Virus record (IMG/VR): IMGVR_UViG_3300027759_000044
Strand: one strand, 5' to 3'
Length of the DNA: 64,000 nt
DNA from: a virus
Taxonomy: Duplodnaviria; Caudoviricetes
Part shown: positions 32,555 through 55,812 of the stretch, piece by piece
Layout of the letters: every line of letters begins with the position of its first letter
How positions within the stretch are numbered: the first letter of the stretch is position 1
The notes under the pieces: model-generated
What the model was told of the DNA's origin: nothing
Seen by the model: only the letters and a program-made list of their open reading frames with translations
Database searches by the model: none
Position numbers and translations under genes: made by a program

Positions 32555-32860
32555 ATGGATACAAAGTCATTAATAACCGAAGCCAAAGCCCGCTTTAATC
32601 ACAATAGCGCAAAAGCATATTTAAAAGACAAATACGATAGTAAATTTATTGTAGCCGATCAAAACGGTTTATGGCGCTCTAATTTAGAAATTATCAACTT
32701 CTTAAATTCAACATCAGATTCAGAAGTTATTATTATTGATACCTTCAACAACCCTGTCAAAGTTATTAGACAAGATTTGTTAGATAAACTCAGCACAGTT
32801 TATAAAACAACTATGGAAGAATGGTATAACGAATGGGTTGAATTAGAGAAAAACCGATGA
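32555..32860 (+). CDS. Hypothetical protein, 101 aa
   Basis: Clear SD; ATGA overlap with the next gene. Confidence 0.7.
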   Translation: MDTKSLITEAKARFNHNSAKAYLKDKYDSKFIVADQNGLWRSNLEIINFLNSTSDSEVIIIDTFNNPVKVIRQDLLDKLSTVYKTTMEEWYNEWVELEKNR

Positions 32861-33660
32861 GCAAGGGTGCATTATTATTTGCGTTTAACTCACCTAAGTA
32901 CAACTACTATGATATGGCAGTTGCTACAGCTAAACGCATTAATCATTTTTTAAATTTACCTGTTACAATAGTAACAGATGAAAGTTCTATTCCTGATAAT
33001 AGAAATTATACCTTTGACAAAACTATAACAATAACCCCTGATAAAACTAATAAACGTGATTGGGGTATATGGATTAATAAGGGTAGATATAAAGCATTTG
33101 AATTAAGCCCGTATACCGAAACATTATTGTTAGATACAGATTATATGGTAAACTCATCTAAACTACTAAAAACATTTGATTTACCCACTGATTTCTGCTG
33201 TCACGATACTACTAGTTTTTTAATGCAACCGAGTGTTTCTCAAGAACTGTTAAGTGTTTATAGCTTTAATACATTATGGGCAACTGTAATTAACTTTAAA
33301 AGAACTAAACGGTCAGAACAAATATTTCAATGTTTAGGAATGGTACAAAATAATTTTGAACATTATGCTAATATACATGGATTCATCTCAGCCACGTTTA
33401 GAAATGATTATGGATTAACATTAGCTACACGTATTACTAACGGACATATTATGCCAATTGAAGATATAATTCCTTGGAACTTGTTGCATGTAGGAAAAAA
33501 TACTAGTGTTTATAGAAACAATGACCATGAATTTAATACAGAATATACAGTAATGTTTGATAACTGGCAACGTGGCAAAATTCGTAAAGAATATAATACT
33601 ATCAAAGATACTGACTTTCATGTTATGTCTAAAGAAAACTTTATGGAGCTAATAGCATGA
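32857..33660 (+). CDS. Glycosyltransferase, GT-A fold (GT8/mannosyltransferase-like)
   Basis: KGALLFAFN...FELSPYTETLLLDTDY (DxD motif); FRNDYGLTLA. Confidence 0.65.
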   Translation: MSKGALLFAFNSPKYNYYDMAVATAKRINHFLNLPVTIVTDESSIPDNRNYTFDKTITITPDKTNKRDWGIWINKGRYKAFELSPYTETLLLDTDYMVNSSKLLKTFDLPTDFCCHDTTSFLMQPSVSQELLSVYSFNTLWATVINFKRTKRSEQIFQCLGMVQNNFEHYANIHGFISATFRNDYGLTLATRITNGHIMPIEDIIPWNLLHVGKNTSVYRNNDHEFNTEYTVMFDNWQRGKIRKEYNTIKDTDFHVMSKENFMELIA

Positions 33661-34406
33661 CTAAAGGATTTGTAATAATGGCACAGGATACTGCTACAGT
33701 AAGTTATACTAACTGTGCTAAAGCATTGGAAAAAAGCATAAAACGTGTCATGCCTAATGCTAACGTTACTATAATTACTACTGATATGTTACCACACGGA
33801 AATTTGGGTGGTTACACAAATGATTGGCAAGTGTATGAAGCAAGCCCGTATGATGAAACTATTAAATTAGAAGCAGATATGTATATTCCACGCAACATTG
33901 ACTATTGGTGGGACGTTCTATCTACACAAGATGTTGTAGTATCAAGTTCTATTAGAAATTATAAGCAAGAACTATCTGATATTAGACTATATCGTAGATT
34001 TATTGATGATAACAATTTACCTGATGCATATAATGCGATAACATATTTTAAAAAATCAGATACGGCTAACCAATTTTTTGATATAGCAAGAAATGTCTTT
34101 GAGAATTGGGATGAGTATAAAAAAATACTAAAGTGTAATCCCGAAGAATTGGCTTCTACAGATTGGGTATATGCCATAGCATGTCATATTGTAGGGGTAG
34201 AAAAAACAATGATGCCGACATTTACTGAAATGTCGATGATTCATATGAAACAATATATTAATGGTACACCAACCGAAAACTGGACAGATACTTTTATATA
34301 TGAATGCTTATCTAATCAAATTAGAATTCAAACTATTCCACAACAATACCCATTTCACTATCATATAAAGAATTTCAGTGCTAAAATATTAGAAGGTATG
34401 AAATGA
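33657..34406 (+). CDS. Glycosyltransferase-like paralog of 32857
   Basis: KGFVIMAQ...YEASPYDETIKLEADM (ExD at the DxD position); STDWVYAIA. Confidence 0.6.
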   Translation: MTKGFVIMAQDTATVSYTNCAKALEKSIKRVMPNANVTIITTDMLPHGNLGGYTNDWQVYEASPYDETIKLEADMYIPRNIDYWWDVLSTQDVVVSSSIRNYKQELSDIRLYRRFIDDNNLPDAYNAITYFKKSDTANQFFDIARNVFENWDEYKKILKCNPEELASTDWVYAIACHIVGVEKTMMPTFTEMSMIHMKQYINGTPTENWTDTFIYECLSNQIRIQTIPQQYPFHYHIKNFSAKILEGMK

Positions 34407-34759
34407 CTACGTCCAATGATGAAAAAGATTACATTATACTATGGGAACAACCTAAGTTAGAACCACCGGAATTTAGATTGTATTACGATGATAACGGTAA
34501 TGTAATATATTATAATGGAGATAAATCTGGTATCGGTAATTACATTGTTATTGATGCTCTTACCTTTGCGGCCGCAAGACATGATATAAAAGTTATTGAC
34601 AATAAAATATCTACTGTTGCGGCCAATGCGGTAATACATAAATTAATGCCAAATGATATTGAAGGTATAGAGTGTCATCTTGAAGATATAAGTGTAGTAG
34701 TTGATAATACATATACTGATAAAAACAAAAAATGGAAATTAACAACATATGAACTTTGA
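34403..34759 (+). CDS. Hypothetical protein, 118 aa
   Basis: Overlap-coupled at both ends within the operon. Confidence 0.65.
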   Translation: MTTSNDEKDYIILWEQPKLEPPEFRLYYDDNGNVIYYNGDKSGIGNYIVIDALTFAAARHDIKVIDNKISTVAANAVIHKLMPNDIEGIECHLEDISVVVDNTYTDKNKKWKLTTYEL

Positions 34760-35702
34760 AGATATTATTGATGTAGCAGATTTAGACTGTATCTATCTTA
34801 GTTATGATGAACCACAGAAAGAAGAATTTTGGCTGAAAATTAAGAACATGGTACCTTGGGCAAAACGGGTTGATAGTATTAAAGGCAGTGATGCCGCACA
34901 TAAAGCGGCAGGGGAAGCAAGCGATACTGAACGTTTCATTTTAATTGACGGCGATAATATGCCTAACGAAAGTTTCTTTAATCTACAATTAGACTTCACT
35001 GGCAAAGACCCTAACTATAAGATAGCACAATATCGTTGGAAAGCAATTAACAATATCAATGGACTACGCTATGGTAATGGCGGAATGAGTTCTTGGACAA
35101 AAACTTATGTGCGTGAGATGAAAACACATGAGCATCAAACTGAGGGTGATGTTTCACGAATCGCTGACTTTTGTTTAGACAGCAAAGATAACTTATACTG
35201 GACAATGTATGATTGCTACTCTACTACTTATCCTAATTATACTCCGTTTCAAGCGTGGCGAGCTGGATTCAGAGAAGGAGTAAAAATGGTTCTTGACCAT
35301 GGTGCCAAACCCACAGTTGATGCACTAAAAGAAACGGTTGCCAGTCGCAATCTCAACAACTTAACAATCTGGCACAACATCGGTCGTGATGTAGAGAACG
35401 GTGAGTGGGCTATTTACGGAGCACGTCTTGGTACATATATGACCATGCTTACTGAGTGGGATCCTGCTAATGTACAATGGTTTGATAACTATACAGTACT
35501 ATGGGAAGAACATTTACATAGAGATCCTGACCGTGAATCGGCATTACTTGGAGCCGCACTACATGACAAGTTGGGACTACCAATGAATCATTTTGATGGA
35601 GGACAAAGCAAGTTCTTCAAGCGTCATTATAGTGCTGATAAATATAATCTCGGGCCGTTAGTCAAAGAGATGGATGTTATTAGAAAAATAGAAGGTTGGT
35701 GA
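34749..35702 (+). CDS. Glycosyltransferase-like protein (GT-A fold)
   Basis: DCIYLSYDEP...RVDSIKGSDAAHKAA...FILIDGDN (DxD)...NGLRYGNGG. Confidence 0.55.
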   Translation: MNFEDIIDVADLDCIYLSYDEPQKEEFWLKIKNMVPWAKRVDSIKGSDAAHKAAGEASDTERFILIDGDNMPNESFFNLQLDFTGKDPNYKIAQYRWKAINNINGLRYGNGGMSSWTKTYVREMKTHEHQTEGDVSRIADFCLDSKDNLYWTMYDCYSTTYPNYTPFQAWRAGFREGVKMVLDHGAKPTVDALKETVASRNLNNLTIWHNIGRDVENGEWAIYGARLGTYMTMLTEWDPANVQWFDNYTVLWEEHLHRDPDRESALLGAALHDKLGLPMNHFDGGQSKFFKRHYSADKYNLGPLVKEMDVIRKIEGW

Positions 35703-35703
35703 T

Positions 35704-37131
35704 ATGAGTGAAAATATTAAAGGTGATGAAATTGGCAAAGTTGATGGCAAATTTCAAAGCTTATATCAAAACTCATCTGAACACGTATTAAAAGAACTTA
35801 ACAACGTAAGCCCAAGCTTTTGTTTAGCTAAATGGTATAATGTAAGCATTCATATCCCTACTGGTAGAACACATAGTTGTTATCATCCTCCCACACATCC
35901 TATCCCAATTGAAGAAGTAAAAATTGATGTAAGCGCATTACATAATACCAAATATAAAAAAGAACAACGTAAGCTGATGTTGGAAGGTAAACGTCCTTCT
36001 GAATGTAATTTTTGCTGGGAGATAGAAGATAGTGGTAACCAGTTAAGCGATAGGGCATATAGAAGTAAAGATGTATTTGCTCCGGGTATAATTGGTGAAG
36101 CCATACAAATTGGTTATGAAGGTAATCCTAAGCCTAGATATGTAGAAGTTAACTTTAATCAAGCATGTAATTTTAAATGCACCTACTGTAGCCCACACTT
36201 ATCATCCGCATGGATGCAAGATATTGAAAAGAATGGGGCTTTTATTCTATCCGATCATTGGCATAATGATATGACTTGGATGAAAGAATCCAATATGATT
36301 CCAAACAACAGGTCAGATAATCAATATATTGAAGCATTTTGGGAATGGTTACCTGACATTTATCCCACACTACAAACATTTCGTATGACCGGCGGTGAGC
36401 CATTAATGGATAAGAATACATTTAAGATGTTTGAGTATGTAAAAGATCATCCAAAAAAAGATTTACAACTAAGTCTGACTAGTAACTGTTGTCCACCTGA
36501 AGGACAGTGGGATAGATTTATGAATGGTTTAAAAAATATTACTGATGCTGATGCTGTGGATCACTTTATGTTATTCTGTAGTTTAGACAGTTGGGGCAAG
36601 CAAGCTGAATATATCCGTACTGGAATGGATTTTGAACTATTAGAAAAGAATATTATTGACTTTTTAATCAATAGTAAAAAACATAGTTTGACTTTTATTG
36701 TAACGTTTAACGCATTAAGTTATACAGGCTGGTTAGAGTATGTTAAACAAATACATAACATGCGTAAGACATATTGTACTGATAGGCAACTGATTTGGTT
36801 TGATGTTCCGATGTTATCTAGCCCCGAATGGCTTAATCCTAGAATTTTTCCTGAACTTATTACGGAGCTTGAAAAATCTGTTAAGTATATGCTTGAACAC
36901 AAAGAAGCTGACCACAATAGATTTAAAGGCTTCAAAGATTTTGAAATCAACAAAGTTGAAAGACTTATTGATTGGGTAAAAACTGAAAACAATTTTGACA
37001 GAAGTTTAGCAATGAAAAACTTTTATATGTACTTTACCGAACATGATAAACGTAGAGAAACAAACTTTTTAGAAACTTTCCCCGAATTAACTGAACAATG
37101 GAATAAATGTAAGGACGAACATGGACGATAG
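35704..37131 (+). CDS. Radical SAM protein with N-terminal Twitch/SPASM-like Cys domain
   Basis: CNFKCTYC (CxxxCxxC), TGGEPLM; N-terminal FCLAKW...GRTHSCYHP...CNFCW. Confidence 0.9.
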   Translation: MSENIKGDEIGKVDGKFQSLYQNSSEHVLKELNNVSPSFCLAKWYNVSIHIPTGRTHSCYHPPTHPIPIEEVKIDVSALHNTKYKKEQRKLMLEGKRPSECNFCWEIEDSGNQLSDRAYRSKDVFAPGIIGEAIQIGYEGNPKPRYVEVNFNQACNFKCTYCSPHLSSAWMQDIEKNGAFILSDHWHNDMTWMKESNMIPNNRSDNQYIEAFWEWLPDIYPTLQTFRMTGGEPLMDKNTFKMFEYVKDHPKKDLQLSLTSNCCPPEGQWDRFMNGLKNITDADAVDHFMLFCSLDSWGKQAEYIRTGMDFELLEKNIIDFLINSKKHSLTFIVTFNALSYTGWLEYVKQIHNMRKTYCTDRQLIWFDVPMLSSPEWLNPRIFPELITELEKSVKYMLEHKEADHNRFKGFKDFEINKVERLIDWVKTENNFDRSLAMKNFYMYFTEHDKRRETNFLETFPELTEQWNKCKDEHGR

Positions 37132-38479
37132 AGTTGTATTTGTAAAAAGCGTAAGAGATAGATTAAACACAGTAAGCCCAAGCTTCTGTGCGATGAAATG
37201 GTTACACCAAACATTGTATCTACACACCGGTGATAATCATAGCTGTTATCATCCTAGACCACATCATATCCCGCTAGATGAGATTGCCGTTGACCCAAGT
37301 GCATTGCATAACACTAAGTGGAAAAAAAAACAACGTAAAAAGATGTTAGAAGGTGAGCGTCCGGATGAATGTTACTATTGCTGGAATATTGAAGACCTTG
37401 AAGGAGATCATATCAGTGATAGGATGATACATAGCGCAAGCGATTTTAGTGAACCATTCATTGAAAAACTAGCACAAATGCCATGGGATGCACCTGTTAA
37501 TCCACGTTATTTGGAAGTAAGTTTTGGTAATGCGTGTAATTATCGGTGTGGTTATTGTAGCCCGCAAGCTAGCACAATGTGGATGGAAGAAATTAAAAAA
37601 CATGGTAACTATGATTTAACATACAATCAATATGGTATTGATTTTTTAACATCAGGTACATATTATGGACCTAAAGAAGAAAACCCATATATTGAAGCAT
37701 TTTGGAAATGGTGGCCTAGCTTAAGAAATGATTTACATACATTACGTATTACAGGTGGAGAACCATTAATGAATCCTGGTGCTATGCAGTTCTTTGACTT
37801 GTTAGAGGATGAACCCGCGCCAAACTTAGAAATAACATTGAATAGTAACTTGGGAGTTACATTTGATAGAGTTGATAGATTGATTGAACGTGTAGGATCA
37901 TTAACATCACAAAATAAAATACGTAAGTTTAGTTTTTTTACAAGCATTGAAGGTTGGGGAGAGCAAGCTGAATATATGCGTACAGGTATGAAGTGCGACC
38001 ATTGGGAAAGAAATATGAGAGCTGTTATGAAAACCGGCGCAACTATTAACTTGATGTGTACATTCAATGTATTATGTGTAGCAACATTTGAAAAGTTGTT
38101 ACATAAGGTTATTGAATGGCGTAAAGAGTTTGGTAAACATAGTGTTGGTCTTGATACTCCGTATTTGAAAGAACCACCCCATTGGATGATTAACATATTG
38201 ACACCTGATTTTATTCCATATATGGATAAGACGTTGAAGTTCATTCAGGATAATCCAGAACACTTTCATGCAGTAGAATATGAAAAATTTAAACGTGTTA
38301 CAAATTATATGAAAGAGCATGTGATTAGTGAAGACAAGATCCGCGCTGGACGTAGAGATTTCTATAGTTTCTTTACTGAGAATGATAAACGTTTGGGTAC
38401 GGATTTAATTAAAACATTCCCTGAATATAAAGACTTCTATGATTTGTGTAAGGATGTTTATGACAACTATGATAAATGA
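37121..38479 (+). CDS. Radical SAM protein, tandem paralog of 35704
   Basis: CNYRCGYC, TGGEPLM; shares many blocks with the upstream gene. Confidence 0.9.
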   Translation: MDDRVVFVKSVRDRLNTVSPSFCAMKWLHQTLYLHTGDNHSCYHPRPHHIPLDEIAVDPSALHNTKWKKKQRKKMLEGERPDECYYCWNIEDLEGDHISDRMIHSASDFSEPFIEKLAQMPWDAPVNPRYLEVSFGNACNYRCGYCSPQASTMWMEEIKKHGNYDLTYNQYGIDFLTSGTYYGPKEENPYIEAFWKWWPSLRNDLHTLRITGGEPLMNPGAMQFFDLLEDEPAPNLEITLNSNLGVTFDRVDRLIERVGSLTSQNKIRKFSFFTSIEGWGEQAEYMRTGMKCDHWERNMRAVMKTGATINLMCTFNVLCVATFEKLLHKVIEWRKEFGKHSVGLDTPYLKEPPHWMINILTPDFIPYMDKTLKFIQDNPEHFHAVEYEKFKRVTNYMKEHVISEDKIRAGRRDFYSFFTENDKRLGTDLIKTFPEYKDFYDLCKDVYDNYDK

Positions 38480-39692
38480 AAATAATAAACATTCATGGTG
38501 TGTAAATGCATACCATGCTCTTAGTGCTAACAATGACGGTAGTACTAAAACATGTTGTATGATCGGGGAGGAATACAATAAATTATCTAAAACTTCTAAT
38601 GAATACTACATTGGAGTCAAAAGTATTAAAGAAAACTTTGACTGTGACGCCGCACAAAATCTTAGAGATAATCTTTCAAGGGGTATAAAAGATAATTCCT
38701 GTCGTCTATGTTGGCAAGAAGAAGAAGGCGGGAGAAAAAGTAAACGTCTACGTGATAATGAAAAATACCTACATGCTATTGAATTTGATGGTCAGGCTCC
38801 GTTTACAGGACTTGCTAAGGTAGAATTAAACTTAGGTAACAACTGTAACATTAAATGTAGAACATGTCATCCTACAATTAGTTCTACCTGGATGAAAGAG
38901 GCATTTGATTTGGATCACGCACCCCGCGGCACTACATATAAAACATTTAGTGTAGGTATGAAAAAGTATCACCAACATTATGATGATGATAGCAGTTTTT
39001 GGCCTGATCTTATTGAAAACTTAGAAACAATTAAACAATTTGATTTTTATGGTGGCGAACCTTTCTTAAGCAAAAAGATGTGGGAAATATTACGTATATG
39101 TGTTGAACGTGGATACGCCAAGGACATTGAGCTACATTATAATACAAATGGAACAGTATGGCCTAAAGATATTGAGTTATGGAAACACTTTCGCTCAGTG
39201 AATATTAGCTTTAGCATTGATGGTATTGGTGAACGTTTTGAATATATGCGTTATCCTGCAAATTGGCAAGAAGTTAGAGCAAATATGAAAAAAGCTGTAG
39301 ACTTTAATATTGAACATAATAACTTATCATTAAGTTGGTGTATGACTTTAAGTAGTCTAAACATATATTATTTGCCTGAACTATTAGATGAGTATTACAA
39401 AAACTGGACAAGTATGGGATTCTATTTGAATTTAGTTCATAATCCAAATCATTTCAATATAAGCAAAATGTCACCTGAAGCTAAACAAGCCGCATTAGAA
39501 CAACTAAACAGTATTCCAAAAGAATATGAAAATGCATGGTATCAACTTCCCGGTATTATTGGGTTTATGATGGCCGGGGAATATGATCCCACAACATGGA
39601 ATTATATGCTTAAAACAATAGATAAGCATGACAAATATAGAGAGCAAGATTATGCTAAAACATTTAGTGATTTTTCAAAGGCAATAAGATGA
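38460..39692 (+). CDS. Radical SAM protein with N-terminal Twitch-like domain
   Basis: CNIKCRTC, YGGEPF, YNTNGT. Start moved to ATG 38460 because of AAGGA at 38450-38454; 38469 is also possible. Confidence 0.88.
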   Translation: MTTMINENNKHSWCVNAYHALSANNDGSTKTCCMIGEEYNKLSKTSNEYYIGVKSIKENFDCDAAQNLRDNLSRGIKDNSCRLCWQEEEGGRKSKRLRDNEKYLHAIEFDGQAPFTGLAKVELNLGNNCNIKCRTCHPTISSTWMKEAFDLDHAPRGTTYKTFSVGMKKYHQHYDDDSSFWPDLIENLETIKQFDFYGGEPFLSKKMWEILRICVERGYAKDIELHYNTNGTVWPKDIELWKHFRSVNISFSIDGIGERFEYMRYPANWQEVRANMKKAVDFNIEHNNLSLSWCMTLSSLNIYYLPELLDEYYKNWTSMGFYLNLVHNPNHFNISKMSPEAKQAALEQLNSIPKEYENAWYQLPGIIGFMMAGEYDPTTWNYMLKTIDKHDKYREQDYAKTFSDFSKAIR

Positions 39693-40981
39693 GTGAACAA
39701 TTCTGGAAATCTAATAACTTAATGCAGATGCACATTGAGTTAACTAATTTATGTAACGCAGCCTGTCCTATGTGTGTTAGATTTTATAACAATAGTCCAC
39801 ATACTAGACCTGATTTAGAATTTGGACAAATCACTATTGATAAGTTTAAAAAATATTTCCCACCAGAAATTATTCGTAAATGTAATCTTATTTTATTTTG
39901 CGGCGTGCACGGAGATCCATGTATTGCTAAAGATATGTATGAGATATGTGAATATATCTATGAATGTTCTGAAACTACTGCTGTGCGTGTTAATACCAAT
40001 GGGGGTATGCGTAAAAGTGATTGGTGGGCTAAACTAGGCGCATTGTTTGCTAAACGAAAAAAGAGTTTAGCCGACGATTTTTGGGAAATTATATTTAGTA
40101 TTGATGGGTTAGAAGATACCAATCATTTATATCGTAGAAACGTAGAATGGTCAGCATTGATGGAAAATGTTAAGGCATTCGTTAATGCAGGTGGAGGAGC
40201 ATCTTGGGATTATTTGATATTTAAGCATAATGAACATCAAATACAAGAGGCAAAACGTTTTAGTGAACAGATTGGCTTTAGAGAGTTTATCCCTAAAAAA
40301 GCTTTGGGTGTAAGCTATGATGTTGAGAATAAGTTGACCATCATGCCTGTATTGAATAAAGAAGGTGAATTAGATTATACAATTGAATCACCTGTTAATC
40401 CAGAAAATAGAAACTTACCTAATGCTGATGGCACCTTACCATTAATGTATTGGCCCTTTAAGGTTGATGAATATCGCAAACTTAAAGATGATAAAGAATC
40501 TATAAGAATGAATTATGATATCAACGCTGATTCAATTTATCAGACTGCAATTAATAATAAAAACTTTGATGAGCAAGATTCATGTAGTATTATTTGCAAA
40601 TCCAAGACACCATTAGGCGGCAAAGAAATATTTGTTGATAACTTTGGCAGAGTTATGCCTTGTTGTTATATCGGGACACACTTAAATGGTAAATATAATG
40701 ATATTGCATCCATGCAATTATACAATCATATGAATCAATATGGCTGGGAGCATTTTAGTTTAGATACACATACATTAGAAGAAATACTTGATGCCGGACA
40801 CTTAGATAGAGTATTTGCTGATTCATGGAAGAAAGACTCAGTTAAGAATGGTAAATTAGCATATTGTGCTAATACATGCGGTAAGAAATCAGCTATTGAT
40901 AAAATATTTTCACATGAATTGAATGATAAAGCTAGTCAAATGGAAAAGTTTAGAACACAAAATGAACATAGAGTTGATTGA
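39689..40981 (+). CDS. Radical SAM protein with C-terminal SPASM/Twitch domain
   Basis: CNAACPMC, GVHGDP, FSIDGLEDTN; C-terminal FVDNFGRVMPCC...CANTC. Confidence 0.9.
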   Translation: MSEQFWKSNNLMQMHIELTNLCNAACPMCVRFYNNSPHTRPDLEFGQITIDKFKKYFPPEIIRKCNLILFCGVHGDPCIAKDMYEICEYIYECSETTAVRVNTNGGMRKSDWWAKLGALFAKRKKSLADDFWEIIFSIDGLEDTNHLYRRNVEWSALMENVKAFVNAGGGASWDYLIFKHNEHQIQEAKRFSEQIGFREFIPKKALGVSYDVENKLTIMPVLNKEGELDYTIESPVNPENRNLPNADGTLPLMYWPFKVDEYRKLKDDKESIRMNYDINADSIYQTAINNKNFDEQDSCSIICKSKTPLGGKEIFVDNFGRVMPCCYIGTHLNGKYNDIASMQLYNHMNQYGWEHFSLDTHTLEEILDAGHLDRVFADSWKKDSVKNGKLAYCANTCGKKSAIDKIFSHELNDKASQMEKFRTQNEHRVD

Positions 40982-47106: not shown

Positions 47107-47453
47107 CCGTATTTCTTAACTTCTTTAACCGGATCATTAAGTAGTTCGGCCATTCTATTTTTTAATACATAACGTTCACTTAATATATTACGAACATGTA
47201 TGGCTCTACGACCTACTTCTTCTAAACTATATTTGTGTTCTACTGTATACTTTTTGAAATCGTCCTCAAGTTCCCAAACTCTAGCATGTACCTCATATAG
47301 TTTATCTAAATCTTCTTTGATTAAATTAAAATTTAACTCTTTAAGTTGGTCAGTGTAGAAGTCTAGTTCTTCTTTATTATCACCTAGCTTTGCAAACTTA
47401 AGTTTGGCAATACAATAACGGTCTACTAGTTCAATTACTGGAAATTTATACAT
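47103..47453 (-). CDS. Small helical protein, DUF6165-like
   Basis: P-x-x-ELVDRxxIxKLK N-terminus, LYEVHARVWELEDDF, and RYVLKNRMAELL resemble DUF6165 proteins of glycan loci. Confidence 0.5.
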   Translation of the reverse strand: MYKFPVIELVDRYCIAKLKFAKLGDNKEELDFYTDQLKELNFNLIKEDLDKLYEVHARVWELEDDFKKYTVEHKYSLEEVGRRAIHVRNILSERYVLKNRMAELLNDPVKEVKKYG

Positions 47454-48642
47454 TTGTTATTTCTACCTTAGGAAAATATTTTAAGAAAACATCTTGTTTC
47501 ATGTTACGTATAGTTTTTATTCTATTACTTATCTCAGTAAAGAAGTTCCAAGCTAATGGCATAAACACTATTTTATCATCTATATTAAACTCTGCTATAG
47601 CATCCGGCCCTTTAATTAATATCTTAGTGCCCGGAGTATATAAGTTTTGTTTTAACGGATTATCATCAATGATTAAATCTAACTGAATGTCTATATAGTT
47701 TAATAATGTATTGCCCTTTGCGGCCGCGCCATATCCTACTATCTTATATCCTTGTTGTTTGTATGTTAACAGCGTTTGTTTAAGGGTAACTATATTATTA
47801 TTCACGTTTTGTACCCATTTGGTATAAGTATCAACCTTATGTAAAGCTGACTCGGTCGTTAATGCATTTTGTATGTTAAACGGTTTACCCTCAATCTTGC
47901 TGAACACAAATACATAACTGGTACCATGAATGGGAGTGCGTATAGCTTCAACCAAATATAATCCTGCTCTCTTTGCTAATTTATTCATGCTATTGATATT
48001 AAAATAATTAACATGCTCATGGTAAATAGTATCAAACTCATCATTGAGTACCATATTAGCCTGACTAGTTTGTACAAACAATTTAGTATGATTGCTCATA
48101 AGTTCACGGCAGTTGATTAAAAATTCTAAAGGATTTGGATTATGTGCCATTACATTTTGAGCTGTTATAGCATCAAATCTACTATTCAACTTGGATAATA
48201 CTTTATCATTAAAAAAATCACAAATTATTGTATGATTCTTTGAACTAGTAGGATAGATATTTTCTGCTGGATCAACTCCCCACGTATCATATCCTAATGT
48301 TTTAAAACAATCTAATTGCGTACCGTCATTGCATCCTATATCTAACACCCGATTGTTAAGCTTAGTGCAATATTCATTAACATAGTTAGCAAACCAGTTA
48401 GAATAGTCTTTTAATGTATTGCTAGTACCACTAACATATAGATAGTTTTTATATATTAATTCAGGGTCAACTATAGTAGTTAATTGGAGGTGAAGGCAAT
48501 CTAAGCATAGATTGACACCTAACGGGAATGTTAGTTCATCTTCATCTTTAGTGGATAGATAGCTATTAGCTAAAGGTTGTTTCCCTAAATCTAAAGATGG
48601 GGTTAAGTTATGTGACCCGCAAGCCAAACATGTATTATTCAT
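47446..48642 (-). CDS. NDP-hexose C-methyltransferase (SAM-dependent)
   Basis: N-terminal Zn site CLACGS...CLDC, VLDIGCNDG, DTIYHEH, C-terminal YGAAAKGNTLL. Confidence 0.85.
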   Translation of the reverse strand: MNNTCLACGSHNLTPSLDLGKQPLANSYLSTKDEDELTFPLGVNLCLDCLHLQLTTIVDPELIYKNYLYVSGTSNTLKDYSNWFANYVNEYCTKLNNRVLDIGCNDGTQLDCFKTLGYDTWGVDPAENIYPTSSKNHTIICDFFNDKVLSKLNSRFDAITAQNVMAHNPNPLEFLINCRELMSNHTKLFVQTSQANMVLNDEFDTIYHEHVNYFNINSMNKLAKRAGLYLVEAIRTPIHGTSYVFVFSKIEGKPFNIQNALTTESALHKVDTYTKWVQNVNNNIVTLKQTLLTYKQQGYKIVGYGAAAKGNTLLNYIDIQLDLIIDDNPLKQNLYTPGTKILIKGPDAIAEFNIDDKIVFMPLAWNFFTEISNRIKTIRNMKQDVFLKYFPKVEITNV

Positions 48643-49540
48643 ATTTTAAAAATTGATTTCTGTTACTAAAGGTAGCATTGTCAAACTTTGTAGATAATTC
48701 ATCTACAATAGTATTAACTGTTTCTTTAAATTCAAAGTCAAAAGTTTTTTGAAACTTTGTCGTATCCATAATAAAGTCATATGAACCTGTAACATCAGGT
48801 TGAACATTGACATTACTTGATAATAATGAACTTATTTTATTACTAAGTCCTTCAACGGAATCATAAAAACTAGCTAGATTGTATATCCCTGCTATTGGTT
48901 TTTTAATGATAGTATCTATTGCCCTAGATATATCAGCAATACCTAAAATAGGACGAATAATATTTTTATTGTTAATAAGAATGTTTCCGTTCTCAATAGA
49001 ATGTTTGGTCATTGAGTTTATCATTAACTCTTCCCTAACGTTAGGACTCCACCCGTTAACGGTACCAAATCGTAACCCTACAATATTATACCCCTTAAGG
49101 ATCATTGATTGTGCAATATTATCAAGTGTGTATTTGGTCAAGTCATAGTTATTAATAGGTTTAAAAATAAGGTCAGTATCTTCATTTGTTTCTGAATGAG
49201 TATCACCATATACGCTTCCACTACTTGCATAGATAAGAGTTTGTCCCTTATCAAGTTTATGTGCTAAGTTGATGAAGTTATTGACATTATTATTCCAACT
49301 AGAGTTAGCTTCTCCCTGACACATTTTAACTGAACTATGACCGGCTAATAATACTACAACCTCAAACTTTGCTATATAATCTTTGGTAAGTGAGTTGTAA
49401 TCAATTACATTACTAAATCCTAAATTTTTACCAAACCAACATGTATCTATGCTTTGTATATCATAAGTATATTGTAGGTCGTGTGTTAGGCGGGAACCTA
49501 TATATCCGTTCCCACCTATTAATAGTATCTTTTTAGCCAT
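48635..49540 (-). CDS. NAD-dependent NDP-sugar epimerase/dehydratase (extended SDR)
   Basis: IGGNGYIG, YASSGSVYG, YDLTK (YxxxK), LRFGTVNG. Start ATG 49540 (or 49543). Confidence 0.88.
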   Translation of the reverse strand: MAKKILLIGGNGYIGSRLTHDLQYTYDIQSIDTCWFGKNLGFSNVIDYNSLTKDYIAKFEVVVLLAGHSSVKMCQGEANSSWNNNVNNFINLAHKLDKGQTLIYASSGSVYGDTHSETNEDTDLIFKPINNYDLTKYTLDNIAQSMILKGYNIVGLRFGTVNGWSPNVREELMINSMTKHSIENGNILINNKNIIRPILGIADISRAIDTIIKKPIAGIYNLASFYDSVEGLSNKISSLLSSNVNVQPDVTGSYDFIMDTTKFQKTFDFEFKETVNTIVDELSTKFDNATFSNRNQFLKYE

Positions 49541-49545
49541 CATTA

Positions 49546-49552
49546 TATTTAT
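49546..49552 (-). promoter_or_regulatory. Late promoter element on the minus strand driving the inverted cassette
   Basis: Reverse complement reads ATAAATA-TAATG-ATG(49540). Confidence 0.6.
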
Positions 49553-49569
49553 TGACTATTTTAGGGTCG

Positions 49570-49576
49570 ATAAATA
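49570..49576 (+). promoter_or_regulatory. Late promoter element, divergent from 49546-49552
   Basis: GATAAATA in the intergenic gap upstream of 49641. Confidence 0.55.
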
Positions 49577-49640
49577 ATCGTATTAAGGTAATAACAGATT
49601 ATAATACTGATAAAAACGGAACATTAATAGAAAGATAACT

Positions 49641-49736
49641 ATGTTTATAATACGCTGGATTAAAAATATTATTAGAGAATACAAATATCGTAAACGAATT
49701 AAAGAATTACGTAAACGTGACCCATTTATTTATTAA
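49641..49736 (+). CDS. 31-aa basic peptide (not in ORF track)
   Basis: MFIIRWIKNIIREYKYRKRIKELRKRDPFIY*; first ORF after the late element; amphipathic basic helix. Confidence 0.55.
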   Translation: MFIIRWIKNIIREYKYRKRIKELRKRDPFIY

Positions 49737-49748
49737 TAGGTATACTTA

Positions 49749-50579
49749 ATGAGCCTTGCCAAATTAAATACCTTAATGTCTGATAACATAGATGATTTTA
49801 AAAAGTTTAGCATAGTTGCTACACGCAAAGATTTGTCTATTCAAACCGATATGAATGTACACTATTTTAGTCCATTAGACTATACACATAGAGAAACATG
49901 GAACTATGAAGATTTTAGTTACGATATATCTAAGTTAGGGTTTAGAGACAATTCAAATATTCCATCTGATATAGATATAGCTGCATTTGGTTGTAGTTTT
50001 ACTTTTGGTCAAGGTCTACCTAAAAATGTGTTATGGCATCATTTATTGGGAGATAGTTTACAACTATCTACGTATAACTTTGGGCAGCCTGCCGCAAGTG
50101 TAAAAACAGTATTAGATATATTTTCGTTAACGTGTAATCATACTAAAATAAAACATGCTATTTTTTTACTCCCACCATTTTTTAGATTACAGATAGCAAG
50201 CAAGCATAAGCATTCAGACAATGTTGAATTGATTCCTATAATACCTAATTATTCTAGTAATTTGGAAAATTCATATATGTTAGATGCGTCGGCAATTTAT
50301 AAATCATTGCCCAACGAAGAATTATGTAAAAATTTCAAAGATAATGTATATCTTATGGAATATATTGCTAAAAAAAATAATATTAAAATTTATTATTCTT
50401 CATGGGATAATTCAACGTATGAGATATTGCTTCAAATGAAATTTAAAAGTGCAATATTGTTACCAAGATGGATTGATTATACTACACCTGAGTTAAAAAG
50501 TTTGGCAAGAGATATGTTACATCCCGGACCGTCAAATCATTTGAAATGGGCTGAAGAAATTAAACCTTATATAATATAA
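49749..50579 (+). CDS. SGNH-fold protein (third copy)
   Basis: AFGCSFTFG, FGQPAAS, DMLHPG (DxxH). Confidence 0.65.
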   Translation: MSLAKLNTLMSDNIDDFKKFSIVATRKDLSIQTDMNVHYFSPLDYTHRETWNYEDFSYDISKLGFRDNSNIPSDIDIAAFGCSFTFGQGLPKNVLWHHLLGDSLQLSTYNFGQPAASVKTVLDIFSLTCNHTKIKHAIFLLPPFFRLQIASKHKHSDNVELIPIIPNYSSNLENSYMLDASAIYKSLPNEELCKNFKDNVYLMEYIAKKNNIKIYYSSWDNSTYEILLQMKFKSAILLPRWIDYTTPELKSLARDMLHPGPSNHLKWAEEIKPYII

Positions 50580-52054
50580 TGAACTACATAGGTATTTCAT
50601 CTGGATTCCATGATGCAGCTGTTAGTGTTATAGATGATACTGGCAACATACTCTTTGCTGGGCACAGTGAACGATATAGTAAAAACAAACATGATAAAGA
50701 TATATGTGACGGATTATTAACCGACGCACTATCACATACCAATTATGTGAATTTACAATATCATTACTATGAACGCCCGTGGTTAAAGTCATTGCGTCAA
50801 TTACGTAGTGGAGAAGGTTTTGTTTGGCCAACATGGAATAATTTATTAGGTACTGTATACAATGACATGAGTAAACCTAACATACACACTCATAATCATC
50901 ACTTAAGTCACGCAGCCGCAGGGTTTCAAACAAGTATTTTTCAAGATGCCACTATTGTAGTAATTGATGCTATTGGTGAGTTTGATACTATCAGTATTTG
51001 GGATGCTAGATATATTAATGGAATAGCAAAGTATAAAAAACTATGGGGACAACGATATCCAGATAGTATTGGGTTGTTTTACTCAGCAATGACTAAACGA
51101 GCAGGTCTTAAACCATTAGATGAAGAATATATACTGATGGGTATGGCAGCATATGGTAACACTAGACCTTTGCGAGAAATGTCTAATACTTTAATAGAAT
51201 CTTTTAGCAACCTCACATTCAAACAAAACCTACATGTAGGTGTATCTGATGATTTTGCCAAAGGTGCGGACAATATGGACATTGCACATAGCGCACAATT
51301 GATAGTTGAACAAATGATAATGGCAGTTATTAGTAAAGCACGAATGCTAGGTGGTAGTAGGAACTTAGTGTATGGCGGAGGAGTAGCATTAAATTGTTTA
51401 GCAAATAGATTGTTAGGAGAATATTATGACAACATTTGGATTATTCCTAATCCTGGCGATGCTGGTTCTAGTCTTGGAGCCGCTGCTTTGGGCTACGGTA
51501 AACAGCTTAATTGGATTGATGCTTATCTTGGTCATAATATCCCTGGTGACTACCCTGTTAATAAGTTATTGGATCATCTTGTTACCACTGGCATTGTTGG
51601 TGTGGCTAGTGGTCGTGCTGAATTTGGACCTAGAGCCCTTGGACATAGAAGCTTACTTGCAGATCCAAGAGGATCAGCAATAAAAGATAAGGTAAATGAG
51701 ATTAAACGTAGACAAAAGTTTAGACCATTTGCTCCTATTATATTAGAAGAATATGCTGATACTTACTTTGATATGCCTAAAGGTTTTACTAACAGTCGAT
51801 ATATGCAAGTTATCAGTAGATGTAGAGTACCTGAATTATTCCCTGCTATTGTTCACCATGACAATACCAGCCGTGTTCAAACAGTACCAAAAGACGGGTC
51901 GGGTATTAGAGAACTATTAGAAAAGTGGTATGTGTTAACTGGATGTCCAATGTTGTTGAATACATCATTAAACATACGTGGTGAGCCGATGGTTAATGAT
52001 AGAGCAGATGCTGATAGATTTGAAAAACTTTATAATGTCCCTGTAATTTCATAA
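50579..52054 (+). CDS. Carbamoyltransferase, NodU/CmcH family
   Basis: GFHDAA, HHLSHAAA, VVIDAIGE, GGVALNC, PGDAG, GRAEFGPRALGHRSLLADP, FRPFAP, LNTSLN. Confidence 0.92.
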   Translation: MNYIGISSGFHDAAVSVIDDTGNILFAGHSERYSKNKHDKDICDGLLTDALSHTNYVNLQYHYYERPWLKSLRQLRSGEGFVWPTWNNLLGTVYNDMSKPNIHTHNHHLSHAAAGFQTSIFQDATIVVIDAIGEFDTISIWDARYINGIAKYKKLWGQRYPDSIGLFYSAMTKRAGLKPLDEEYILMGMAAYGNTRPLREMSNTLIESFSNLTFKQNLHVGVSDDFAKGADNMDIAHSAQLIVEQMIMAVISKARMLGGSRNLVYGGGVALNCLANRLLGEYYDNIWIIPNPGDAGSSLGAAALGYGKQLNWIDAYLGHNIPGDYPVNKLLDHLVTTGIVGVASGRAEFGPRALGHRSLLADPRGSAIKDKVNEIKRRQKFRPFAPIILEEYADTYFDMPKGFTNSRYMQVISRCRVPELFPAIVHHDNTSRVQTVPKDGSGIRELLEKWYVLTGCPMLLNTSLNIRGEPMVNDRADADRFEKLYNVPVIS

Positions 52055-52062: not shown

Positions 52063-55000
52063 ATGCTTAGAGATGTATTTTATTACGGGAATAAACCCAA
52101 TGTTCACCCAAGAGAAAAACATGCAATTGATTTAGTTGATGCTAGACAACAAGCTACTACTGAACATTTTTGGATAATCAATGAATATTGCGATTATACC
52201 AATTTTGATTGGGATTGGGACTTTGATTTTTTACCTGATGAAGAAGTTTGGACAGGTGAACATAATAATGTATGGCCAAACAAACAAAATAAAGACAGTG
52301 GCACATGGCTATGTTCAACCCAATATAGCGACATTATTATATATCGGGCAGATGTTGAACCTGTTAATAGAAAAAATACAAAACATAATAATTGGGTAAT
52401 TTTAGATAAGATTGATGAAACCAAATTTGATTTTAGTTGGGAGCCCAATCCATATGATCCTCCTTATATATACAAATGGGGTTGTAAATTCTATCCCGCT
52501 GAAATTAAACATTATGTAGAGTATCATGTTGAGGGTGCTACTAATATAAAATATATGCCTGATGTAGTAGAATTATCTCCTGAATGGGATAAATGGAAAA
52601 TAAATTATTCTATTGACAAATCAAGTTTTGATTTTAGTTGGAGACCTGATCCTCGTGAACCAGCATTTATTTATATGTTTGGTAACACACAATATCTAGC
52701 TGAAACGATGCCAACAGTTGAATATCATGTATCGGGAGCAACAGAACAAAAATTTATTGATGACCTATCAATGAGAGCCAAAATATTACCCAATAGTACA
52801 CGATTTGAACATTTAGAAAATTGTGATGGAATAGATTATTCATGGGTACCTGATCCATGGAGTCCCCCGTATATCTATGCTTGGGGCAATCAATGGAATA
52901 AACCAGAAGATAAAATCTCTATTCAATATGTTGTTGAAGGTGCAACAGAATACAAATACATGGAAGACCGTGCTACACGTAAACCATGCATGGACAACTG
53001 GGAAATACCACCTTATGTTATAAAGAATAGTTTTGATTTTAGTTGGGAACCTAATCCACATGACCCACCTTACATATATCAATTTGGTACAGTACATCAA
53101 AAGACAGGCGGTCCTCGCTATACAGTGCCCGGTGCAACAGAATTAAAATATATTGATACTGTTAAAGCAGAAGTAGTAGCATGGAGATTTACAAATTGGT
53201 TGATTCCAAGAAATGTAGACCAGGCATCATTTGATTGGAGTTGGCATCCCGATGATACTGACCCGCCCTACATCTATCAATTTCCTAGTACATGGAGTAA
53301 AACAGGTGGACCTAAATTTACTGTAGAAGGTGCCACTGAAACAAAATATATAGATTCGTTAATAGCAAAAGTTAAACAAGATATGACACATTGGTCTATA
53401 CCTGAAGGATTAGATACTAGTGAGTTTGATTTTAGTTGGCATCCTGATGTTGAAGACAAACCCTATATATATCAATTTGGTACACAATGGCAAAAAACAA
53501 ATGGTCCTGTTTTTACTGCTCCATTATGCGATGAAACTACACCTATCAAGTATATAGATATTATCAAAGCAAAATATTTGCCTAATAAAACAAATTGGAT
53601 TATACCTGCAGGGTTTGATGAAACTAAATTTGATTTTAGTTGGCATCCTGATGCAACTAGCCCGGCATATATCTATCAGTTTGGCACACTATTAGATGAC
53701 GTTCATTTAGAAGACGGTCCTAAATATGTTACACCCGATAATGACGGGACCATTGTATTAATGGAAAACATATTGTTATCAGATACAGTAGTACAGTACC
53801 CTCAATATTATATTGAAACTACATTAGAAGCATTGATAGAACAACACATAGATGAAATCTTTTGGGCATTACGTAAGAACATTAACTATACTAAGTTTGA
53901 TTTTGCATGGCAACCAACTAAAGAACAAGCATTTAATATTAACACATTTGGTAGTCCTGACAGTGAGTTAACACAAACCTACTTAGTTAACGGTAAGATG
54001 TGGCAAAAAGGTTATAGAGATATTAGCTTTATTGAAAATACAAAACTAGATGAAGAATATCTATCTAAGTTATTCAAACAAGTTGACGCTTTCTTTGTGG
54101 ATAAAGGTAATAAAGAATCTGCTACTAGATTTGAACAACTAAAAATACACTTCCCTACACTACAAAAGACACGTTATCTAAACAGTTGGGTTGATACAAT
54201 CAATCGCTGTATCAACAAATCTACTACAGAACTATGCTGGATATTGAATAGTGAATTAGATTATACTAACTTTGATTTTAACTATTATCCTAACCCATGG
54301 CAAATGACAATGGTTCATGTATTTGGCACTCAATGGAGTCATTGGGGTAGTACGTTTATGGTCAATAAAGAAACCTTTGCGGAAGATACAAAGTATGTGA
54401 AAATTATTGAACACCTAACTAACTTAAACTTTGTAAAAACAAAACGTGCTATAGCTAGTAATTGCTTGTATGATGTTTACTTAATTGATTATGGTAATGA
54501 CGGAGTTAATGATATTGTTTCATTAATAGAAAGCAAGATTAAACGTGAAAACGTTTATACAATCAAGTATGAAACTGATTACTTAACTACATTGAAGAAT
54601 ATGCTATATGAGTTGGGTATAAAAAAGGATCACTACATTTGGGTATGCAGTTCAATATGTGATTACACTAACTTTGACTTTACTTATATATGTGATCCAT
54701 TCTCATTGGAGCAGTTACATGTATTCCCTAGTGATAAACAAAAGTTTGGAGATACATTCTTTATTAATGTAAACAAATTACGTATTCTTGTAGAAGATTT
54801 GGATAAGCTAGAAAATATAGAGAAGATTAACTTTAATCAGCATCAAAAAGTAAAACGTTTGCCTGCCCCTAGTTTTGTTACTGATGCTGATACACATTTG
54901 AATTTCAAAAAACATAGTTATAACTTCCCTTATGCTGTGTTTACTACAAGTGATAATTTAATCGCACCAGACATTAATGATGAACCAATCAGTATGTGGT

Positions 55001-55812
55001 CTATTGAATCTAAGAATATATTGATTACGAATATGGGAGGCACACGTATTGTTGTACCCAAAGAAGCTAATAATTATGTTGAAAAGGAGTTGTATGATTA
55101 TCCATACATTTCCAAAGCAACAAAGATAGGACAGTCAACGCCACTGGATATAGTCTTCCTAAGTAACGGTGAAACCGGAGCTGACGAGAACTACGAACAC
55201 TTACTGAACGTGACTAAAGGACTGAAAAATCGTGTTGTTAGAGTCGACGGGGTCAATGGTCGTGTTGCTGCCTATCATGCAGCCGCAATTGCTAGTCAAA
55301 CATCTTGGATGTTTACGGTGTTTGCTAAATTAAAAGTTAATAGCAAGTTTGACTGGACATGGCAACCTGATAGATTACAAGTACCTAAACATTATATCTT
55401 CTATGCAAGTAACCCTGTTAATGGATTAGTATATGGTCACCAAGCTATGATTGCGTACAACAAACAGATTACATTAAGTAATATGGGCAAAGGATTAGAC
55501 TTTACATTAGATAGTGAGCATGAAGTTGTTGAGATTAATTCGGGTGTAGCACGTTACAATACAGATGAGTTTAGTACATGGCGCACTAGTTTCCGTGAAG
55601 CTATTAAGTTACGATTAGATGATAGTGCTATTAGTAGACACAGATTGAAAGTATGGACAACCGTTGGTGAAGGAGACTATGCCCAATATAGTACACAAGG
55701 TGCTCAACATGCTGTAGAATACTTTGAACAAGTCAATGGGGATTTAGACAAATTACGACTAAGTTATGATTGGCCTTGGTTGCAAGAGTATTTTAATACT
55801 AAATACAATTGA
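52063..55812 (+). CDS. 1249-aa repeat protein built from GT-A-like fragments
   Basis: About 12 copies of FDFSWxPD-type motifs; C-terminal domain (DIVFLSNGE...RVDGVNGRVAAYHAAA...NGLVYG...WRTSFREA) parallels the 34749 protein. Confidence 0.7.
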   Translation: MLRDVFYYGNKPNVHPREKHAIDLVDARQQATTEHFWIINEYCDYTNFDWDWDFDFLPDEEVWTGEHNNVWPNKQNKDSGTWLCSTQYSDIIIYRADVEPVNRKNTKHNNWVILDKIDETKFDFSWEPNPYDPPYIYKWGCKFYPAEIKHYVEYHVEGATNIKYMPDVVELSPEWDKWKINYSIDKSSFDFSWRPDPREPAFIYMFGNTQYLAETMPTVEYHVSGATEQKFIDDLSMRAKILPNSTRFEHLENCDGIDYSWVPDPWSPPYIYAWGNQWNKPEDKISIQYVVEGATEYKYMEDRATRKPCMDNWEIPPYVIKNSFDFSWEPNPHDPPYIYQFGTVHQKTGGPRYTVPGATELKYIDTVKAEVVAWRFTNWLIPRNVDQASFDWSWHPDDTDPPYIYQFPSTWSKTGGPKFTVEGATETKYIDSLIAKVKQDMTHWSIPEGLDTSEFDFSWHPDVEDKPYIYQFGTQWQKTNGPVFTAPLCDETTPIKYIDIIKAKYLPNKTNWIIPAGFDETKFDFSWHPDATSPAYIYQFGTLLDDVHLEDGPKYVTPDNDGTIVLMENILLSDTVVQYPQYYIETTLEALIEQHIDEIFWALRKNINYTKFDFAWQPTKEQAFNINTFGSPDSELTQTYLVNGKMWQKGYRDISFIENTKLDEEYLSKLFKQVDAFFVDKGNKESATRFEQLKIHFPTLQKTRYLNSWVDTINRCINKSTTELCWILNSELDYTNFDFNYYPNPWQMTMVHVFGTQWSHWGSTFMVNKETFAEDTKYVKIIEHLTNLNFVKTKRAIASNCLYDVYLIDYGNDGVNDIVSLIESKIKRENVYTIKYETDYLTTLKNMLYELGIKKDHYIWVCSSICDYTNFDFTYICDPFSLEQLHVFPSDKQKFGDTFFINVNKLRILVEDLDKLENIEKINFNQHQKVKRLPAPSFVTDADTHLNFKKHSYNFPYAVFTTSDNLIAPDINDEPISMWSIESKNILITNMGGTRIVVPKEANNYVEKELYDYPYISKATKIGQSTPLDIVFLSNGETGADENYEHLLNVTKGLKNRVVRVDGVNGRVAAYHAAAIASQTSWMFTVFAKLKVNSKFDWTWQPDRLQVPKHYIFYASNPVNGLVYGHQAMIAYNKQITLSNMGKGLDFTLDSEHEVVEINSGVARYNTDEFSTWRTSFREAIKLRLDDSAISRHRLKVWTTVGEGDYAQYSTQGAQHAVEYFEQVNGDLDKLRLSYDWPWLQEYFNTKYN
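55799..55805 (+). promoter_or_regulatory. Late promoter element (CTAAATA) for the tmRNA precursor
   Basis: Inside the last codons of the upstream gene; 5 nt later is G55811, just before the first strand that pairs with the coding piece. Confidence 0.55.

Follow-up and report, generated by a model that had tools for sequence, protein, structure and literature searches.

The viral record IMGVR_UViG_3300027759_000044, of which a stretch of 64,000 nucleotides (the window) was analysed, is DNA from an uncultured giant phage of freshwater that carries among its tail-fibre genes a 23-kb island of glycosyltransferase (GT), radical S-adenosylmethionine (SAM) and sugar-tailoring genes at positions 32555-55812. 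The reading that we tentatively favour is that the soluble cytoplasmic enzyme set encoded by this island assembles and tailors a short glycan, which most likely becomes attached to fibre or baseplate proteins of the phage itself. What makes glycosylation of virion proteins the best single reading is the embedding of the island among fibre genes, the late-type element that opens it, the relationship of its GTs to enzymes that glycosylate proteins, and the maintenance of its core across phages of presumably different hosts.

The island consists of 20 open reading frames (ORFs) of 101-1249 amino acids (aa) and a mini-ORF of 31 aa. Seventeen of the ORFs lie on the plus strand and three (47103-49543) on the minus strand, and most of the junctions are overlaps of 1-41 nt or gaps of no more than 8 nt. 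The initial annotation of this DNA had described about 20 tightly coupled genes within these boundaries, including four or five GT-like and six radical SAM enzymes, a carbamoyltransferase, a C-methyltransferase and an epimerase; the coordinates and the gene count hold, and all of these enzyme assignments are borne out by the analyses presented below. ORFs are named here by their lower coordinate and lie on the plus strand unless otherwise indicated. The gene order in the window is baseplate wedge gene 8356, ORF 11766 encoding 5917 aa, fibre genes 30339 and 31551, the island, and the fibre-like genes 56172 and 57253. A hydrophobic 19-mer above 1.6 was found in none of the island proteins, all of which are predicted to be soluble. 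Among the island ORFs, no flippase, polymerase, Wzm/Wzt or lipid-phosphate/lipid-carrier priming transferase was matched in Pfam or NCBIfam, so that the membrane proteins of a self-contained surface-polysaccharide pathway (Wzx/Wzy or Wzm/Wzt) are absent by these searches. The solubility of the proteins and their position between fibre genes would fit direct glycosylation in the cytoplasm, and would also be compatible with the editing of host lipid-linked glycans.

The first enzymes of the island are two paralogous GT8/glycogenin-like glycosyltransferases (32857-33660 and 33657-34406). As single sequences they had no Pfam match at E<=0.01, and GT8 was reached by profile search only: a profile built from the alignment of 30 phage homologs of both proteins matched glycogenin-1 and -2 in the PDB over approximately 100 residues (E 7e-8 to 5e-6, with E 7e-8 for glycogenin-1), and ORF 33657 additionally matched phrog_1903. 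The DxD motif reads D93-T-D95 in ORF 32857 and E-A-D in ORF 33657; its second Asp (D95) and a C-terminal His (H255 in ORF 32857) are invariant in the 30 sequences. The third enzyme (34749-35702) is a GT-A-fold glycosyltransferase of an unnamed family that comprises 1725 representative clusters, and has an invariant D67-x-D69. Its AlphaFold2 (AF2) model, with a predicted local distance difference test (pLDDT) of 84, shows a GT-A domain and a helical domain. The best PDB match in Foldseek was the weak one to PBCV-1 A64R (E 1.6e-4, template modelling scores 0.29/0.41); WrtF, RmlT and SunS were matched as well, and the AlphaFold Database (AFDB) gave GT2-like matches. The nearest structural relatives of the core GTs, glycogenin and PBCV-1 A64R, both act on proteins.

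At its right-hand end the island encodes a protein of 1249 aa (52063-55812; AF2 pLDDT 71), conserved in this position, in which at least six beta repeats of about 66 aa are followed by three GT-A-like domains. Residues 622-886 of the model gave GT-A matches at Z 8-10 covering two domains, the AFDB gave multi-domain GT matches, and the last domain is a paralog of ORF 34749 (hhalign 99.4%) with F-A-K in place of the DxD. Except for this last domain, the protein had no match in Pfam, among PDB sequences or in cultured phages, and the N-terminal repeats gave no confident structural match in fold searches, which were dominated by the GT-A domains. The repeat has the motif FDFSW-PD...PPYIY-FG...GATE-KY, and since its copy number varies, the homologs (in contigs L101-L144) span 943 to 2717 aa; the repeat also matches a part of the 34749 GT profile, and one database protein of 1735 aa contains 14 matched stretches. 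A 413-aa ORF (45865-47106) is possibly GT10-like, i.e., of the fucosyltransferase type, by an Atlas feature score of 0.77 to GT10 clusters; a profile search against the PDB and a Pfam scan of 12 homologs gave no match. The four enzymes and this weak lead account for the GT-like genes of the initial annotation.

The six radical SAM enzymes belong to three types. Four are members of the N-terminal-twitch family NF033640 (N_Twi_rSAM), whose curated cut-off is 170 bits for the whole protein over the full-length model: 35704-37131 (312 bits), 37121-38479 (313 bits), 38439-39692 (298 bits; 1020 homologs at E<=1e-10) and 44638-45861 (212 bits), the last of which also matches the SPASM family PF13186 with residues 7-69 (E 4e-11). 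All four have the CX3CX2C motif (CNxxCxxC), which is invariant, and an N-terminal Cys-rich auxiliary-cluster domain, with C21, C39, C88 and C91 conserved within the first 100 residues. The family has no assigned reaction, and our literature searches found no functional study of it or of such islands. The fifth enzyme (39689-40981) scores 45 bits against NF033640, below the cut-off, and is therefore not a member; it has CX3CX2C at residues 22-29 and a C-terminal SPASM-like cluster of Cys 299, 303, 325, 326, 393 and 397. The sixth (40978-43038) is a B12-binding radical SAM enzyme (PF02310 and PF04055), probably a methyltransferase, and TokK is its best solved relative (E 7e-7). Apparent insertions of 400-600 bp in the radical SAM genes of relatives, considered as introns or inteins, were rejected as an artefact of joining the next paralog.

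Three further ORFs encode sugar-tailoring enzymes. On the minus strand, 47446-48642 encodes a nucleoside diphosphate (NDP)-sugar 3-C-methyltransferase of the MtmC/TcaB9 type with a three-domain architecture of zinc-binding N domain, SAM methyltransferase and C-terminal domain (PF08421, E 1.4e-17; PF13489, E 1.2e-18; PF08484, E 4.4e-27), which is related to the D-mycarose 3-C-methyltransferase 4RV9 (E 8.5e-52) and to TcaB9 (E 1.6e-34). It is accompanied on the same strand by a short-chain dehydrogenase/reductase (SDR), an NDP-sugar epimerase or ketoreductase (48635-49543; PF01370, E 3e-21), with weak NCBIfam matches to heptose epimerase, GalE and RmlD. The plus-strand ORF 50579-52054 encodes an O-carbamoyltransferase of the NodU/CmcH family, with a Kae1-like N domain (PF02543, E 2e-32) and a YrdC-like C domain (PF16861, E 3.5e-46). 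Its solved relatives NovN, GdmN and TobZ were matched at E 5.5e-49 (NovN) to 1e-34, and at 491 aa it is shorter than these proteins (576-702 aa).

Conservation was counted in the best 80 of 190 IMG/VR contigs with close relatives of ORF 37121 (72-96% identical), and in 45 further contigs with relatives of ORF 52063, giving 125 related loci altogether. In the 80 loci the order is nearly constant, running from fibre genes through GT8, GT8 and GT-A (often with a second GT-A) to four radical SAM genes, and in most of them this core of GT8-GT8-GT-A-radical SAM lies downstream of the fibre genes. ORF 35704 is represented in all 80 loci, ORF 34749 in 74, ORF 33657 in 63 and ORF 32857 in 62. Other genes are variable: 10 of the 80 loci have the B12 radical SAM gene, about 30 have SGNH-like genes and 4 have the cassette of C-methyltransferase and SDR. 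In the 45 further loci ORF 52063 forms the right-hand end of the island, usually with the carbamoyltransferase directly before it and a changing set of radical SAM paralogs preceding, and the periphery of the island varies among the 125 loci. The core was also found in an NCBI contig (L081), in a marine contig (L083) and in the cultured Ralstonia phage RsoM2USA. In the latter, ORFs 354-348, all annotated as hypothetical, are a small ORF, GT8, GT8, a small ORF, GT-A, an N_Twi radical SAM enzyme and a GT-A-like protein; the GT-A is 40% and the N_Twi radical SAM enzyme 36% identical to the island proteins. They follow ORFs 356, 359 and 361, all of which were detected in virions; the virion analysis of this phage identified 10 abundant bands. 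A profile search of genome contigs with the 38439 subfamily retrieved six contigs of metagenome-assembled genomes, of which at least one (L083) is plainly phage and none is established as bacterial.

Bacterial relatives of NF033640 and of the 34749 family speak for glycan chemistry. In the sampled genomes, NF033640 genes were present in 125 of 401 Bdellovibrionota, compared with 2 of 400 other Pseudomonadota and 4 of 400 other Bacteroidota, and in Bdellovibrionota there are often many copies, located on megabase contigs. An ABC-transporter O-polysaccharide locus on the GC-rich bacterial contig G106:C19 comprises Wzm, a Wzt (ABC ATPase and Wzt_C) fused to an N_Twi radical SAM enzyme, and three more N_Twi genes, followed by a TylF-type O-methyltransferase, a methyltransferase and a WbsX glycosyltransferase. 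In genome G172 an NF033640 gene adjoins a GT2 gene and an SDR gene of the GDP-mannose-dehydratase type. Moreover, in eight Bdellovibrionota chromosomal loci (L152-L159) N_Twi and 39689-type genes cluster with GT2, carbamoyltransferase and ABC ATPase genes. The genes of one of these loci (L156) are 54-57% identical to the phage ORF 39689, an indication that genes have passed between these phages and predatory bacteria. Bacterial members of the 34749 family, for their part, are fused to GT1 domains. Taken together, the bacterial contexts of the radical SAM and GT families support a carbohydrate chemistry for the whole island.

Two side observations were made on these relatives. In G172:C134:10522-12165 and G710:C12:7013-8575 an extra stretch of about 145-165 aa, inserted in-frame where the model runs from position ~140 to ~152, splits the N_Twi gene; it is a possible intein. 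The metagenome contigs L147-L149 contain a bacterial locus in which a fusion of GT1 with a 34749-like GT is encoded together with another GT1, an ABC exporter of the C39-peptidase type, an outer-membrane efflux protein, a protein with a transglutaminase core and four small ORFs; this looks like an undescribed glycosylated-peptide (glycocin-like) system.

A TAAATA late-type promoter element is located at 32534-32539 on the plus strand, 16 nt before the first island gene (32555). In the window this hexamer occurs 8-30 nt upstream of six plus-strand starts, compared with 0.54 expected, and the genes so preceded include the baseplate genes 7852 and 8356, fibre gene 30339 and island gene 32555. The element before the first island gene is kept in the closest relative (L001), and the equivalent site of L081 is a perfect TATAAATA. 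At the same spacing, TAAATA precedes no gene inside the island, and rarely does so in the relatives. The late elements said in the initial annotation to open and punctuate the island were thus recovered at its opening, and not between its genes. Scans of 29000-48999 for sigma-70 promoters and intrinsic terminators gave results at the level of the shuffled background. From its sequence, the island resembles a single long operon with a late-type element at its start, together with a divergent operon pair around 49544-49748. The two indications of late timing, namely this one late-type element and the co-orientation with the structural genes, suggest that the island may be expressed late.

The divergent 205-nt gap at 49544-49748 separates the minus-strand sugar cassette from the operon that begins with ORF 49749. 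The start codon of the SDR gene at this gap is directly abutted by AATAAATATA and has no Shine-Dalgarno sequence; the 31-aa, very basic mini-ORF (49642-49737) lies downstream of a GATAAATA element.

In the mechanism that we propose, the island would be transcribed with or just after the tail-fibre genes. The two GT8 enzymes and the GT-A enzyme 34749 would start and extend sugars directly on the protein acceptor from host NDP-sugars, and the 1249-aa multi-GT protein would then add further residues. In a third step, the 3-C-methyltransferase would act with the SDR to turn an NDP-4-keto-6-deoxyhexose into a branched deoxysugar, a hydroxyl would be O-carbamoylated by the NovN/TobZ-type enzyme, and the SGNH-like proteins could add or remove acyl groups. 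Finally, the five twitch/SPASM enzymes and the B12 radical SAM enzyme would edit the sugars, possibly by C-methylation, epimerisation and dehydrogenation or deoxygenation.

The initial annotation had placed a complex glycan either on the virion or on the host surface. A glycan or sugar chemistry is supported by the solved relatives and the bacterial loci, which are evidence independent of the phage, and either the virion or the host surface may be its target. For the virion, there is precedent for glycosylation by phage GTs in the work that is cited in PMC12619734, and we also count in favour the bacterial member of the 34749 family that adjoins a C39-peptidase ABC peptide exporter. Several points weigh against this reading. 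The Ser, Thr and Asn richness of the candidate acceptors is not diagnostic, because fibre proteins are rich in these residues in most phages; the best family matches of the B12 enzyme 40978 are C-methyltransferases of ribosomally synthesised and post-translationally modified peptides (RiPPs); and the bacterial contexts of NF033640 are exported polysaccharides, not glycoproteins. Additionally, GT8 enzymes also build the core of lipopolysaccharide (LPS), of which GT8 is the classic family. The study of pelagimyophages (PMC7029224), moreover, reads comparable islands, its host-recognition clusters, as modifying host O-chains.

The last of these points leads to the principal alternative, which we regard as rather unlikely and nevertheless as the strongest of the rivals: the enzymes may edit host envelope glycans in the cytoplasm, either the LPS core or undecaprenyl-linked O-polysaccharide, before export by the host Wzm/Wzt or Wzx, and the altered surface would block superinfecting phages or stop progeny from sticking to debris. 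The fusion of a bacterial N-twitch radical SAM enzyme to Wzt, in ABC-transporter polysaccharide loci, points in this direction. An ABC-transporter polymer is built by soluble or peripheral cytoplasmic enzymes, so the missing membrane proteins are compatible with it, and the latent periods of jumbo phages are long (270 min in RsoM2USA). However, a position in the fibre operon behind a late-type element leaves little time for surface turnover, the island encodes no lipid-carrier or export function of its own, and the core is shared by a soil Ralstonia phage and by phages of lakes and the sea, whose hosts presumably differ in their O-antigens.

Three further explanations are less likely than either the virion or the host-glycan reading. 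The 3-C-methyltransferase, the SDR and the NovN-type carbamoyltransferase are typical of antibiotic deoxysugar pathways and could serve a free or peptide-linked glycosylated natural product, aminoglycoside-/novobiocin-like or glycocin-like, directed against the host or competitors. The B12 and SPASM radical SAM families are common RiPP maturases, a bacterial 34749 relative adjoins a C39-peptidase ABC exporter, an outer-membrane efflux protein and several small ORFs, and the island itself has the small ORFs 32555, 34403 and 47103 and the 31-aa ORF at 49642. We nevertheless consider such a product improbable, as Pfam and NCBIfam revealed no scaffold synthase (polyketide synthase, non-ribosomal peptide synthetase or cyclitol synthase), exporter, recognisable precursor peptide or RiPP recognition element (RRE), and as the antibiotic-like sugar genes occur in only 4 of 80 relatives while the conserved core is made of GTs and radical SAM enzymes. 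It is also quite improbable that the fibre or giant structural proteins are themselves substrates of the radical SAM enzymes, which would cross-link, epimerise or C-methylate them in the manner of RiPP maturation, with glycosylation as a separate second decoration. Peptide maturation is what SPASM/twitch and B12 radical SAM enzymes are best known for, and the island adjoins the fibre genes and the 5917-aa structural ORF; against this, the bacterial members of the radical SAM family lie in polysaccharide loci and not beside peptide precursors, and a Pfam scan of the island ORFs detected no RRE/PqqD-like domain. The least probable of all, by our estimate a very small chance, is the glycosylation or carbamoylation of bases in a DNA hypermodification pathway. 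Phage GTs and radical SAM enzymes do participate in some of these pathways, for which PMC12619734 cites Pyle et al. (2024), and a weak Atlas lead connects ORF 52063 to TET-associated GTs (0.80), but no base hydroxymethylase, TET/JBP, nucleotide kinase or DNA-binding match was found in Pfam or NCBIfam at the thresholds used, and the island is surrounded by structural genes and preceded by a late-type element.

The remaining ORFs of the island have less certain roles. Two paralogous SGNH/GDSL-like proteins (43029-43808 and 43811-44641) have GCSYTAG in place of the GDS motif, and a third (49749-50579), which has an FGCSFTFG motif and a match to DUF6473 (E 1.5e-3), aligns with the other two at 19% identity and often precedes the carbamoyltransferase in relatives. 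Block I of the family is GCS[YF]T, one relative having GDSYTAG, and a PGxSNE block and C-terminal His residues are conserved. Three of eight members matched PF00657 at E ~4e-4; the PDB gave no match, and the catalytic Asp was not identified in the alignment. The three SGNH enzymes of the initial annotation are thus retained as weakly supported candidates, on the basis of the shared block and the PF00657 matches and in spite of the replaced GDS. Among the small ORFs, the first island gene (32555-32860, 101 aa) is found at the same position in L001, L059 and L083, and a small ORF is found at the position of 34403-34759 (118 aa) in RsoM2USA (ORF351), L081 and L083; neither had a match in Pfam, PHROG or NCBIfam. 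A helical 116-aa ORF on the minus strand (47103-47453), without family assignment, travels with the C-methyltransferase and the SDR. In the four loci with this variable cassette it is the most conserved protein, with 89-90% identity as compared to 62-65% for its enzyme neighbours.

The assignment of the window to a phage is based on ORFs upstream of the island that match a baseplate hub, a gp25-like wedge and a gp6-like wedge subunit. The wedge protein 8356 shares about 33% identity with its counterparts in Phosso, Atu_ph07, Serratia BF, Yersinia fHe-Yen9-04 and related (Rak2-like) jumbo phages. Near-identical DNA is present in freshwater metagenomes of 12 studies, and cultured phages had no DNA-level match to 40001-48000. 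Upstream of the island, fibre protein 30339 has a C-terminus with a Peptidase_G2/IMC-type domain and 31551 encodes a Thr-rich protein; the flanking fibre-type proteins 30339, 31551, 56172 and 57253 contain 27-46% Ser, Thr and Asn together. The 5917-aa ORF (11766-29519, plus strand), located between the wedge and the fibre genes, contains 28% of these residues and had no Pfam match in either half. It occupies the place that the giant VrlC-type ORF has in pelagimyophages and the virion protein ORF361 has in RsoM2USA. Directly 3' of the island, a permuted two-piece transfer-messenger RNA (tmRNA) gene at 55778-56113 (plus strand) was detected with Rfam (beta_tmRNA, 98.6 bits with a gathering score of 84; tmRNA_permuted, 104 bits), and was missed by ARAGORN. 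A 72-aa ORF on the minus strand (55815-56033) is probably spurious because this gene overlies it; its conservation in relatives (94-96%) is as fits an RNA gene. The betaproteobacterial type of the tmRNA and the core shared with a Ralstonia phage hint at a betaproteobacterial host.

If the virion is indeed the target, phage virion glycosylation would extend from mycobacteriophages to abundant environmental jumbo phages, and the large and fast-changing enzyme sets in the host-recognition regions of many aquatic myophages would be explained. The surface of the fibres would then vary chemically, which would affect host range, the evasion of defences and the stability of the particles. In its broadest form, which we put forward as a possibility with more doubt than confidence, the proposal is that a widespread lineage of aquatic and soil jumbo phages coats its fibres with a glycan rewritten by N-twitch radical SAM enzymes, and that the enzyme set is shared horizontally with the predatory Bdellovibrionota; this would represent a new kind of post-translational decoration of virions and a new carbohydrate radical chemistry. 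NF033640 is a large family without a known reaction, found in 31% of the sampled Bdellovibrionota genomes and on hundreds of phage contigs. As it is fused to Wzt and constantly paired with GTs, a carbohydrate substrate is directly testable, whatever the target. RsoM2USA, with its minimal core, offers an experimental entry point.

Among the known systems, the closest is the host recognition cluster (HRC) of pelagimyophages and cyanomyophages described by Zaragoza-Solas et al. (2020; PMC7029224), a hypervariable region that, as here, lies behind baseplate genes and a giant ORF, contains tail-fibre genes together with GT8 and radical SAM cassettes, and gains or loses radical SAM cassettes among relatives. 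The island resembles an HRC in position, in GT8 and radical SAM content and in hypervariability, the likeness of its giant ORF to VrlC being one of position alone. It differs in that it belongs to another phage lineage, keeps a fixed GT8-GT8-GT-A-radical SAM order, and adds the mycarose-type C-methyl branch, the carbamoyltransferase and the 1249-aa multi-GT protein. The published reading of the HRC, host O-chain modification, is itself putative, and is not the one that we favour. In the mycobacteriophage system (Freeman et al. 2023, cited in PMC12619734) and in PBCV-1 with A64R (PDB 2P6W), virion proteins are glycosylated in the cytoplasm by soluble GT-A enzymes of the virus, whose genes lie next to structural genes. 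These systems use one to few GTs and no radical SAM, carbamoyl or C-methyl tailoring, and a virion glycan of the present phage is putative. The Wzm/Wzt O-polysaccharide loci share with the island the N_Twi domain, fused to Wzt in G106, whereas the phage island lacks Wzm, Wzt and membrane proteins. Antibiotic tailoring with mycarose or noviose (MtmC/TcaB9; NovN/TobZ) has its homologs in ORFs 47446 and 50579, with an SDR adjacent; however, the island contains no aglycone pathway, NDP-hexose 4,6-dehydratase or nucleotidyltransferase, and the cassette is limited to 4 of 80 loci. The sugar precursors must therefore be supplied by the host or by another part of the phage genome. Radical SAM and GT8 cassettes beside the fibre genes of aquatic myophages have already been described at the level of gene content (PMC7029224; PMC5332604), the latter study reporting up to 12 radical SAM genes in a T4-like environmental genome. 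As far as could be told, the present analysis adds the fusion of Wzt to a radical SAM enzyme, the domain layout of the 1249-aa multi-GT protein, the fusion of 34749 family members to GT1, and a cultured phage with a minimal core.

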